Source: Eledone cirrhosa
Lineage: Eukaryota
NCBI GenBank assembly: GCA_964016885.1
Contig: CAXHJY010001755.1
Coordinates: 1 to 28,504 of the forward strand
Direction: 5' to 3'
Length of the DNA: 28,504 nucleotides
Under the pieces are notes generated by a model. It saw nothing but the letters and a program-made list of their open reading frames with translations. It did not search any database and had not been told where the DNA came from. Shown here one piece after another: positions 1 through 21,167 of this stretch (positions are counted from its first letter, which is position 1; every line of letters begins with the position of its first letter). The translations under genes and the position numbers were made by a program.

Positions 1-1560
1 GGTTGTGGGTTTGTGGTAGGTAATTTGGCATTGGTGAGTAATGTTTTCAGTGATTTCGGTTGTCTTTTGCTTTTGATTATTTTGTGTGTTTCAAGGGCTT
101 TTTTCATTCTTGGGTTTTGTTTTAGTAGTGGGATGTTCTTGTGAATAGTGTTGTAAGCTTCCGCATTTCTTGGGTTGTGTGTTGAGATATATAATAGAAT
201 ATTGGACGTACCTTGAATTTGTATCTGTTTTCGTAATTCATCAATGCCTATTGCTTTAGCCGTTTCTATTCCATTATTTATTAGTAATAGTGGGTACTCT
301 CTTTCGAGTAGAATTTCCTTTAATTCTTGAAGTCTTTTATTTCGCGTTTCATAATTGGAGACAATTGTGCAAATTCTTCTTGCTAGGTTAAAAAGAATGT
401 TCGTCTCCGGGTGCTTTGATGGTTGGAGGTGAATAGCAGGTATTGTTTGGAATCTGTTGGTTTGTAGTGTATGTCAGTTTCGATATTTGTGTGTTTTTTT
501 AAGATTAAGATGTCCAGAAATGGGAGTTGATCTTGGCTGCATTCCATTGTGAATTGGATGTGGTTATTGATGCCGTTTATTAAGTTTTTGAAATCCTTCA
601 GTTGGTCGAGTGTGTGGGACCAAAGAATGAGACAATCATCCAGTAGCGTTTCCAATTCTCTGATAAATATTTGTGGAAGTTAAATCCGTATTTTGATTTG
701 AACTGTTCATATATCCGGACTTCTAAGTATGCCATGACTAAGTTGCATAAGTTGGAGCGGCTTTTGTACCCATCGCAGTCCCCGATATTTGCTTGTAAGT
801 ATTGCCATCGAAATAAAAAAAGTTGTTCTGTAAGATGAATTTTAATCCCTCGGTGATGAAGCTTTTTTCTATTCTGTCAGGTATCTCATTGGGATATTTC
901 TCTAGCCAGAATCCTATTGTTTTTAGTCCGTATTGGTGTGGGATCGTTGTGTAGAGATTCACTACATCGAAAGACACAATGATAGTGTCGTTGTTGACAT
1001 GTTTGGGGAGGTGGTTTAAGAGGTCCAGATCGTCTCTTACAAGCTTGGTATGTGTTTTCAGAATTGGTTTTAGTAGTATGTCTATAAAGTTGCTCAGTCT
1101 GTGTGTTTCACATTGTGGGCCCGCTACAATTGGTCTTAATTTAAGGTCTGTGGGGTATTGTGTGTTCGCGCAGGCTGAGGTGGATTGTTTACAGGCATCG
1201 TTAATTTTTTTACACTTGTGGATCTTCGGAAGTCCGTAAAGGTTGCTGGTTTTGTATTCAAAATGTGTTAAATAATCGCGTTCCTTTTTAGTTAGGTCTT
1301 CCTGGTATCGATAAATCAGTGTGTTTAATCTGGTCATTGTTTTTGATTGCTGGTAGTTTTTTACTCTTTCATAGTAATTAGTATTTTGTAAGACAGAGAA
1401 CATAGAATTTTTATATTTTCAGGCTCCATAATGACAACAGTATTTCCCTGTCCGCTTCCTTAATTATAATGTCCGTATTATTTTTTAGTTCATGGATAAT
1501 CTCCCATTCCTTTCGACTCGTGTTGAGTTTGTGTTTAGGTTGCGGTAGTTCATGGTATGG
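1..1560 (-). pseudogene. Penelope-like retroelement reverse transcriptase ORF, frameshifted and 5'-truncated; runs off the window start, where a C-terminal GIY-YIG endonuclease would be expected
   Basis: Hand translation across frames gives IIIKEAD(R)G/NTVVIM (DKG-type motif, ~1430-1475), LYGLPKIHK, LRPIVA, SFDVVNLYTTIP, YKQISGTAMGTKAAP, WKRY/LDDC (catalytic motif split by a 1-nt frameshift near 645), LPFLDI, TDIHYKPTDSKQYL, NLARRICTIVS and linker RQPKSLKTLLT (~35-65). Frameshifts near 1440, 740, 645 and 415. Confidence 0.93.
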
Positions 1561-2876: not shown

Positions 2877-2937
2877 TATATATATATATATAGTATTATA
2901 TATATATATATATATAGTATTATATATATATATATAG

Positions 2938-3003
<66 letters not shown>

Positions 3004-3198
3004 CTGTAGATATAATACTATATATATAATACTATATATATATATAATACGATGTATATATAATACTATATATATATAATACTATATATATATAATACTA
3101 TATATATATATATATAGTATTATACAAGTATCGTATATATATATATAGTATTATATATATACAATACTATATATATATATATTAATATACAATACTAT
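2551..3198. repeat. (CT)n/(TA)n microsatellite with AATAC and GTATT interruptions in both orientations
   Basis: Read directly from the sequence. Confidence 0.95.
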
Positions 3199-3199
3199 A

Positions 3200-3384
3200 G
3201 GATTGGCAGTATCGGTAGAGGGTCGGACGCCATGCTTTCCAGCATAGTTACGTCCCTTTACGATCTGAGTTCAAATCCCGCCGACGTTGACTTTGCCTTT
3301 CATCCTTACGGGGTCGATAAAATAAAGTACCAGTAATGTACTGGGTTATTGCTGGCCTTGTGCCTAAAGTGTAGAAACAACTAT
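3200..3384 (+). mobile_element. tRNA-derived SINE (Octopus OR-type-like), short-tail subfamily
   Basis: A-box-like TGGCAGTATCGGTAG, B-box GAGTTCAAATCC, body ggggtcgataaaataaagtaccag, tail ggccttgtgcctaaagtgtagaaacaa; many homologues in the window. Confidence 0.88.
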
Positions 3385-3541
3385 ACATATATATATAATA
3401 CTATAACCAAAAGTTAAACAAGGTTCATTGATTAATCAATGAATATAGTTTTACAATAGATTAGAAGCACTCAACAAATGTTTTCTGGAGTTATTAATAT
3501 TAATTCAAAATATTAATAAACTATATTTATAAAACCATATT

Positions 3542-3606
3542 TATTTCATTATACATATTTCATGGACACCAAAGCAAATTATGGTGCGCTTTCATCAGAT
3601 AAAATA
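3542..3606 (-). ncRNA. Minimal hammerhead ribozyme, family C (left palindrome arm)
   Basis: Reverse complement of 3751-3815. Confidence 0.7.
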
Positions 3607-3750
3607 TAATATAGATAAGTTTTATAAACAAATATTGACATACCCTTAAAGAATGCGACCATGTCGGTTGGAGCTTCTGGAAGCTCCAACCGACATTTTC
3701 ACATTCTTTAAGGGTATGTCAATATTTGTTTATAAAACTTATCTATATTA

Positions 3751-3815
3751 TATTTTATCTGATGAAAGCGCACCATAATTTGCTTTGGTGTCCATGAAAT
3801 ATGTATAATGAAATA
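3751..3815 (+). ncRNA. Minimal hammerhead ribozyme, family C (right palindrome arm)
   Basis: TATTTTAT-CTGATGA-aagcGCACCA taatttgctt TGGTGTccat-GAAA-TATGTA-TA-ATGAAATA: 8-bp stem I (one GU), intact core, imperfect base of stem II. Confidence 0.7.
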
Positions 3816-3944
3816 AATATGGTTTTATAAATATAGTTTCCATTTGTTAATATATTGTATTTTTACTCCAAAAATTTGTTGAGTACTTTATATCAGTTAT
3901 AAAAATATTTGCTTGTTGTATCCCAACAAATTAAATAGAACTTC

Positions 3945-10404: not shown

Positions 10405-10408
<4 letters not shown>

Positions 10409-10586
10409 ATGTTGACGGTTTAGAGAAAGGAGTACTCAATACCGAAGTAGAGTTTTAATATTCATTTTATTAAGGCTAAATAGCGAGTCTTGTTACTCAG
10501 GAGTTTCGCCTGTTCATCACAGGGTCATCAGGGAACTCTTGTCTGATGACCCTGTGATAAAGAGGCGAAACTCCAGTGTAATAAAA

Positions 10587-10590
<4 letters not shown>
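10405..10590. mobile_element. Head-to-head pair of family-B hammerhead/pLTR copies in (TA)n
   Basis: Minus: CTGATGA(10531-10525)-cCCTG tgatgaa CAGGc-GAAA-CTC ct GAG-TA-ACAAGA, then aataaa and a tail with attgagtactcc. Plus: TCTTGT-CTGATGA(10543)-ccctgtgataaagaggc-GAAA-ctcc, then a deletion to aataaaatgaa. Confidence 0.8.
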
Positions 10591-11931: not shown

Positions 11932-12002
11932 TATATAATGTATATATATACTACATAGACACAAATATATAAATGAATGAATATATATATATATATATAT
12001 AT

Positions 12003-12196
12003 ATAGGAACAAGTAAGACCCCGACGGCTGAGCTCAAGCCGTTTCGACGGCTAATTCTGGACTGAATTAGCCGTCGAAACGGCTTGAGCTCAGCCGTCGG
12101 GGTCTTACTTGTTCCTATTACCCACTCTACTACCCTAAGTATTGAGTACTTTGGTGCGTAATGGTCCACCTGGTGCCTTACCACATTTCCTTCGTT
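12003..12196 (+). mobile_element. Fold-back element: perfect 55-bp inverted repeat made of the 3' half of a hammerhead, plus a pLTR-like tail
   Basis: Arms 12003-12057 and 12064-12118, loop tggact. Right arm reads stem II 3' strand, GAAA, CGGCT tgagctc AGCCG, TC (GUC site). Tail has attgagtact and ends in (TA)n. Confidence 0.8.
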
Positions 12197-12289
12197 ATAT
12201 ATATATATATATATATACATGTGTGTGTGTATAAGTGTCTGCGAATGTATTGTGTGCTTACGGTTACTGTTTGTGTATATCACGTATCC

Positions 12290-20790: not shown

Positions 20791-21167
20791 ATATAACCCT
20801 CCAATGTTCTACCTTTATATATATATATTGTTTCCTCCCGTTGCATTGTATTTTCTCTGCAACGGGAGGAAACAATAGCACCACTGACGATGTTGCAGAT
20901 GTGCAACGAAAGAACTTTGATAAACTATATATATGTGTTTGTGTCTATATTGTATCTGTATTATTTTTGACCGTTGGTCAGTCAATGGCAACATTGAGGA
21001 CCGAATAAATTAGATTACCGATATAAAAGAACAGAAGCGAAAAGCGAAAACCAACCAAACAGTGAGTGTGTTCTGTTATTAATTCTGGCAATATTACACA
21101 AATATGACCCTCCCCAAGTATAACAATATTTGTTTCGACACACGATTTCATATCAAAAACCTCGCAA

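Follow-up and report, generated by a model that had tools for sequence, protein, structure and literature searches.

A palindromic insertion of Eledone cirrhosa probably built from two separately primed cDNAs of a Penelope-like element

Introduction

In the accounts available in part, endonuclease-containing Penelope-like elements (EN+ PLEs) are described with a hammerhead ribozyme and a start site in their pLTRs, partial tandem copies, (TA)n targets, head-to-head inverted 5' copies, a tail at one end only, and junction palindromes (PMC8557442, PMC3846280, PMC2377424); the inverted 5' copies and one-sided tails are documented in two of them (PMC8557442, PMC2377424). The palindromes have been read as products of self-priming in a paper that also places putative TATA and Inr elements in the pLTRs (PMC3846280), and the formation of inverted ends and one-sided tails was called unresolved elsewhere (PMC8557442). 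As far as the accessible text of these accounts goes, they invoke self-priming or resolution by the endonuclease, and state no rule on which ends are combined. Closest in biochemical terms is PAc, the Poseidon element of Anolis. In vitro, this enzyme, for which a dimer is predicted, nicks both strands of an AT-rich target and extends them, starts reverse transcription internally at two sites that bound the tail, and uses an uncleaved RNA template, ribozyme cleavage being dispensable; in the parts of the account seen, neither inverted copies nor the two target ends are connected with these two sites (PMC11167929). Metazoan PLE hammerheads have a type I layout with a palindromic loop 3, dual motifs on opposite strands, and, as in Cercyon of Schistosoma, a described U3-A8 core variant (PMC4209133, available in part).

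The family analyzed here has the EN+ PLE traits listed above. It differs from the available descriptions in that the tail measures 78 nt rather than 30-40 nt, and in that most inserts are two-arm units of about 200 bp with a fixed stop. The two internal start sites that bound the tail, the putative nicking and extension of both strands, the AT-rich target and the uncleaved template recall PAc; however, priming is reported to proceed without homology there, whereas both sites read TAT against (TA)n here, and the start sites of PAc lie in the ORF but those of our family in the 5' UTR (PMC11167929, as seen in part). The predicted ribozyme has the type I features named above, including the U3-A8 core, but with a stable stem III of 5-6 bp, a loop II of 37-39 nt, and C3 together with A8 in many copies, in contrast to what the seen parts describe (PMC4209133). 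What we regard as new, beyond the known inverted copies and one-sided tails, is the combination of one tail-less (S) with one tailed (L) terminus in each insertion, hereafter the S+L rule, together with the fixed stop. Neither the rule nor the stop appeared in the literature searched, as far as its accessible text goes. Likewise, no application of twin priming to PLEs was found in that literature, most subscription papers lying outside it, and the available parts of a bioRxiv retrozyme preprint and of a paper on Octopus vulgaris repeats contain nothing on a two-arm structure.

Results

The palindrome of the window

The window, i.e., the whole stretch of DNA analyzed, is a complete 28.5-kb contig from a 3.0-Gb genome rich in TA repeats. 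Positions 12003-12118 are its longest perfect inverted repeat when microsatellites are excluded (z = -18, 200 shuffles). The perfect palindrome originally predicted for 12003..12196 was borne out in the form of two perfect 55-bp arms (12003-12057 and 12064-12118) around the loop TGGACT, followed on the right by a 78-nt tail ending at 12196, so that the hairpin unit has 194 bases (12003-12196), with (TA)n on both sides. In agreement with the 3' half of a PLE hammerhead predicted for this inverted 5' junction, the right arm carries GAAA, then a stem III of 5-6 bp, and then GUC. The ribozyme 5' half is missing, and the copy is without the hammerhead core and the 5' strand of stem I. Numbering is relative to the T of TAGCCGTC, set as position 0 (window 12068), and the features are listed in Table 1. 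The join may lead from S(-10) to L(-4), or from S(-14) through a 4-nt GAAT overlap, the latter being possible because the window subfamily has C at -11; the S arm may thus reach -14 (12067), as this subfamily has TCATTCAG upstream. The possible GAAT/ATTC overlap could also form a hairpin (+0.1 kcal/mol). Our best explanation of the whole feature, which we consider probable, is a short PLE insertion made of two head-to-head copies of the 3' part of the pLTR.

Table 1. Features of the palindromic insertion and its flanks (window coordinates)
Feature	Position	Strand	Basis or remark
(TA)n target, left flank	11981..12002	.	ATA runs on into the S arm; 3-nt match to the TAT of the element
S arm, inverted copy, +51 to -10	12003..12063	-	sequence
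Apex loop TGGACT, cDNA-sense copy of AGTCCA (-10..-5)	12058..12063	+	S arm only
L arm, sense copy, -4 to tailed end +129	12064..12196	+	sequence
Hammerhead stem II 3' strand	12068..12075	+	partner strand absent from the window copy
GAAA, stem III with palindromic TGAGCTCA loop, GUC triplet	12076..12098	+	predicted cut after 12098
Stem I 3' strand: GGGGT, then TTCC	12099..12115	+	alignment of intact copies
TAT of the S priming site, where tail-less copies of the family end	12116..12118	+	in each run, about 2,900-3,400 reads change to TA at this point
78-nt tail, spanning the S to L sites	12119..12196	+	tandem copy (L100)
(TA)n target, right flank	12197..12217	.	sequence

Abundance of the family and its donor element

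A 22-mer of the right arm had 53,708 exact matches in the genome. Short palindromes, with at most 18 nt between both stem II strands, were found at 12,728 loci, chromosome-scale contigs included; their junctions were varied, and the arms had diverged in most copies (49 of 61 imperfect). Insert sizes ranged continuously from about 200 bp to several kb with an ORF. In one tandem copy (L100), the L site continued as TAT into the 5' UTR and then into an ORF with its ATG at +221, which ran for 700 codons without a stop and contained the motifs GLYRDDGL and VIYQC..AYIGL, named by eye. Homologues of this ORF numbered 2,119 in the full-length range at E<=1e-30, mostly without names, and a Pfam scan of the element ORFs, including that of L100, gave no match. 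Between the RT and endonuclease regions there was a linker, CNCPDRSICPLDNRC, which is not an exact match to the CX2-5CxxC of the Cys-rich linker of the Neptune/Nematis clades. By these motifs, the donor is assigned to the EN+ PLEs, with a single ORF predicted to encode an RT plus, at the C terminus, a GIY-YIG endonuclease; pLTRs from partial tandems, an inverted copy and an optional tail were all present. We presume that it is of the Neptune/Nematis type, Nematis being a guess. An RT fragment at 738-1418 (-), with PLE-like motifs by eye, was discarded as donor, being dissimilar to the donor ORF, and C17:41.45 Mb, considered as the chromosomal counterpart of the window for an empty-site test, was a different locus.

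Candidate hammerhead ribozymes in intact copies

As originally expected, intact copies of the predicted ribozyme exist elsewhere in the genome, with 2,363 exact matches to 5' halves. The layout of 38 core-keeping copies was ACCCC-(T/C)TGANAAG-CTCGGCTA-(37-39 nt)-TAGCCGTC-GAAA-stem III-GTC-GGGGT, the core and the start of stem II reading (U/C)UGANAAG-CUCGGCUA. The true 5' strand of stem II is (G)CTCGGCTA, which lies upstream of TAGCCGTC at a distance of about 37-39 nt, and comparison with these copies placed the palindrome apex within the stem II loop. This contradicts the claim that the hairpin folds exactly at stem II: GACGGCTAATTC/GAATTAGCCGTC is not stem II of the ribozyme, its left strand being an inverted copy. 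Moreover, the intact form predicted from that claim, CTGANGA-GACGGCTAATTC, had only 7 matches; each of these lies in an unrelated repeat and is followed by neither GAAA nor a stem III. The helices were 91.6% paired among 18 intact copies, and two pairs had changed on both sides, covariation not exceeding that of shuffles. An Rfam search with an intact ribozyme copy returned no match, and with the window no hammerhead stood among the 150 best of 266 matches. From their layout, we consider the intact copies candidate type I hammerheads, with predicted self-cleavage at GUC. A large minority of the intact ribozymes listed for C1 had C3 opposite A8, which should weaken the core; this subfamily is possibly inactive, yet it has spread.

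Two fixed termini, one of each per insertion

Copies of the family ended against (TA)n at either +51 (S) or +129 (L), 78 nt apart, and the S end was confirmed by raw-read breaks into TA. Both sites read TAT in the donor, which matches a primer ending in ATA. Among 63 short palindromes chosen regardless of tails, 62 were S+L, one was L+L and none was S+S. A second, overlapping set of 66 head-to-head pairs contained 58 S+L, no S+S, two L+L and six unclassed; on reading, both L+L pairs were S+L. This set came from 22-mer loci within the initial 14 Mb of C1, namely 30 search loci and 40 fetched regions, covering the 100 listed 22-mer places except the last few; the 63-palindrome set adds 19 regions taken in positional order from the list of palindromes, with two listed places skipped unseen and one copy unclassed. 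When tail-biased matches were included, 70 S+L and one S+S were counted among 71. The rule is based on loci fetched from the first 21 Mb of C1, and the sole exceptions found were one S+S (L012:690-800) and one L+L (L202). The S+S copy was situated in a TA array, at a distance of about 770 bp from a same-subfamily copy of the S+L kind.

The arms as separate cDNAs

Neither arm was consistently the longer in the short palindromes: the S arm exceeded the L arm in 24, the reverse held in 23, and 15 had arms of equal length. Seven of 55 adjacent S+L pairs had no or almost no sequence in common, and in six more the S arm was much the longer. Both arms reached -10 at 4,840 loci, and at 601 of these a single base stood between them, which leaves no space for a primer hairpin. 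The raw reads from three samples also contained non-overlapping joints (on L017, 1495/1496 to 1549/1564), as did run contigs, and strand-switch joints at -10/-9 recurred in the reads of three separate samples; as a class, these structures are not assembly artefacts. Raw reads on the window palindrome itself were uninformative about spanning of the apex, as 12064-12067 are natural bases, and a drop in RAD-read depth was confounded by the pile of read ends at an AATT site; only joints and S-end breaks were used.

In 59 of 61 copies the two arms agreed at the diagnostic columns, where 21.7 such copies were expected, and mismatches numbered 1.6 within copies and 4.2 between copies. Thus, both arms of a copy come from one donor subfamily, which is compatible with a single RNA, with two RNAs of one donor, and also with a snap-back of cDNA. 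One copy (L112:720-912) had arms that differed at three adjacent diagnostic bases; its tail matched the subfamily of the left arm, pointing to template switch or conversion. Junctions at five loci (L018, L019, L097, L099 and L105) had short fillers copied from nearby arm sequence, resembling the templated insertions of end joining. One-base fillers were C or G in 44 of 50, a bias for which the C(-11) subfamily and the loss of T/A cases to TA microhomology are confounders. Target-site duplications were not readable in (TA)n. The junction statistics suggest twin-primed insertion, i.e., two head-to-head cDNAs, one for each target end.

A fixed stop in the loop of stem II

The apices had been predicted to be non-random relative to stem II, and this proved right: among 117 arms that reached position 0, 96 stopped at 0..-17, five at -18..-75 and 16 beyond, both arms typically stopping 4-14 nt upstream of the stem II 3' strand. 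Single arms joined directly to TA stopped at the same place, so the collapse of long palindromes is not the cause. All S and L arms that reached the stop crossed GUC, and only one of 72 L arms ended near +31, indicating an uncut RNA template.

The AGT at -10..-8 was invariant in 18 aligned intact copies, diverged ones included. We take the TCATTY/TYAGTC context of the stop to resemble the insect initiator consensus. A diverged sister family kept TTAGT at the same place, and two of its palindromes (L009 and L239) stopped there, a third (L214) being longer. Family B (10405-10590 in the window) also formed S+L palindromes, in a sample biased by its choice for likeness to an S+L query; each arm had the whole core, and the stop was at AGTT upstream of it. 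As judged from these two further families, the stop follows a motif and not stem II. We lean towards the stop being the RNA 5' end, with a putative transcription start at the initiator-like YAGT within the stem II loop.

The evidence on this start site was mixed. The ORF start was spanned by 30 copies, about 14 of which reached the upstream pLTR; only one (L172) ended at -9, the remaining long copies reading through -10 or ending elsewhere. The prediction that full-length copies end at -10 thus held in 1 of about 14, and the start-site reading needs a second, read-through class of RNA. A TATA-like TATTTAAA about 30 nt upstream was rejected as a promoter box, not being conserved across subfamilies. 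An untemplated G preceded A(-10) in 17 of 78 single arms (counted by hand) and A(-5) in about 8 of 31, therefore no one cap site was singled out; a cap comparison of 8/31 with 0/33 at C starts was set aside, since the pattern leaves too few free places for TG. One insertion (L191:195-1371) contained three segments: an S arm, a piece that began at -9 and entered the ORF over a length of about 960 nt (+960), and, starting once more at -9, an L arm; this suggests a template jump after run-off.

Discussion

The S+L rule, the symmetric arm lengths, the non-overlapping joints, the joints at which the two arms reach an identical base, the single arms with this stop and family B together indicate two separately primed cDNAs. 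We are confident, to a high degree, that each target end would prime its own cDNA as in L1, with host repair or the RT joining the two; twin priming, in which the cDNAs start at two fixed RNA sites and are joined at their 3' ends, is our probable account of the insertions. The enzyme would cut both strands of (TA)n, and one target end would prime at S and the other at L on the element RNA. The cDNAs would run off the RNA 5' end about 60 nt (S) and 140 nt (L) later, and would be joined blunt, by microhomology or with short fillers. We somewhat favor an RNA that starts at YAGT in the stem II loop, which would miss half of the ribozyme and could not self-cleave, and long copies would derive from read-through tandem RNAs. 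For L1, Ostertag and Kazazian reportedly described twin priming in 2001, both target ends being said to prime on the element RNA and the cDNAs to be joined, often at microhomology. There, the second site is said to be an opportunistic one, with little overlap between the arms, whereas here both sites are fixed and internal, and the cDNAs usually copy the same stretch, which gives a palindrome.

The original prediction was that nascent cDNA snapped back at stem II of the ribozyme and primed its own second strand, and a self-priming explanation of PLE palindromes is, in the text seen, already published (PMC3846280). The clustering of apices near stem II and the donor-specific variants common to both arms are what a snap-back would give; ATTC-TGGACT-GAAT could form a marginal hairpin at the end of the S cDNA, and the single S+S copy could have arisen so. 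However, the apex lies in the loop, without the true stem II partner, and in family B it is upstream of the core. A snap-back predicts S+S or L+L palindromes, or an L arm that is always longer, and not 62 S+L of 63 with lengths balanced at 24:23. The non-overlapping joints (7/55), in which arms hold sequence missing from the partner arm, largely refute it, and both the one-base fillers at 601 loci where the two arms reach -10 and the single arms with the same stop speak against it. In the window, the loop is a cDNA-sense copy on the tail-less arm, which is impossible from fold-back of a tailed cDNA, and fold-back of a tail-less cDNA supplies no tail. We therefore regard this reading as very unlikely. 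Self-priming on an antisense template, proposed from rotifer PLEs (PMC3846280, seen in part), would yield head-to-head palindromes through a hairpin intermediate, with the tail left at one end after the endonuclease trims that of one arm (after PMC3846280 and PMC8557442, both seen in part). It needs self-complementarity at the apex, which is missing at many joints (A-runs at L015 and L026; fillers of 0-1 nt), and extra deletions to account for the non-overlapping joints and for single arms with the same stop; moreover, in the available parts of the in vitro account, it is on sense RNA that the RT starts at the two tail ends (PMC11167929). This makes it quite unlikely in our judgment. Clonal amplification of a MITE- or SINE-like unit from one rearranged ancestor would explain the high copy number, the size of about 200 bp and the recurrence of some junctions, but junctions vary from copy to copy, the same junction occurs in different subfamilies, the ends are asymmetric, and the inserts form a continuum up to multi-kb units with the ORF, making this origin highly improbable. 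The structure is not that of a MITE, with terminal inverted repeats at both ends and a uniform clonal make-up, given the asymmetric ends and variable apices, nor of a non-LTR retrozyme, with tandem units of complete ribozymes, being a single two-arm insert with half a ribozyme. An assembly or library fold-back artefact could be suspected, as the window is the whole of a small contig; it has next to no probability in view of the number of loci (12,728), with varied junctions and on chromosome-scale contigs, the same joints in reads of three samples, and the divergence between arms in 49 of 61 copies.

Twin priming could also be right with a common stop that is not a transcription start but reflects cutting of the RNA, an end related to splicing, or pausing of the RT. 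Reading through -10 is seen in most long copies, the cap signal is unspecific, and TTTAG at -9 and CCAG at -4 look like splice acceptors; the Penelope of D. virilis has an intron end in its ribozyme (PMC4209133, seen in part). On the other hand, a sequence-driven pause of the RT would be expected to halt long cDNAs at the upstream pLTR as well, where 1 of about 14 stops, a splicing-related end is at odds with the lack of a constant upstream exon at the joints, and ribozyme cleavage should give +31 ends, near which one of 72 L arms was found. Also, the stop tracks an AGTY motif in families with different ribozyme geometry. We rate a stop of this kind as rather unlikely.

A wider version of the twin-priming account, which we offer tentatively, is programmed two-ended PLE integration, in which a dimer would prime each target end at one tail-bounding site of a single capped mRNA, the start site would lie in the element's own hammerhead loop II, and the ribozyme would act as a brake on transposition. 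If so, the promoter-made RNA would have half a ribozyme at its 5' end, and the complete ribozyme of the 3' pLTR would cleave before the downstream priming sites, on their upstream side; promoter-made mRNA would yield only hairpin inserts of about 200 bp, and full-length copies would need uncut read-through RNA.

The junction rule (one S, one L, one stop) joins the in vitro results of 2024 into a testable mechanism, and, coming from tens of thousands of junctions, argues against self-priming. It would also explain a large class of near-perfect hairpins of 55-60 bp, which repeat annotation could misfile as MITEs and which, if transcribed, would be double-stranded RNA substrates.

Other palindromes in the window

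The family B copy at 10405-10590 was an S+L palindrome in head-to-head arrangement, each arm having a complete CTGATGA..CGAAA core; the tail of this family has ACTCTAC..GTATTGAGTAC in common with the main family, and its copies are numerous and older (about 85% alike). A long head-to-head palindrome at about 3540-3940, with its apex at 3678, had motifs like a minimal hammerhead (CTGATGA..GAAATA) on both arms and ended at TA; by these motifs it is probably a third PLE family. At 20820-20930, a palindrome with 20-bp arms was followed by CTGACGA..GAAA, between TA runs and with a different geometry.
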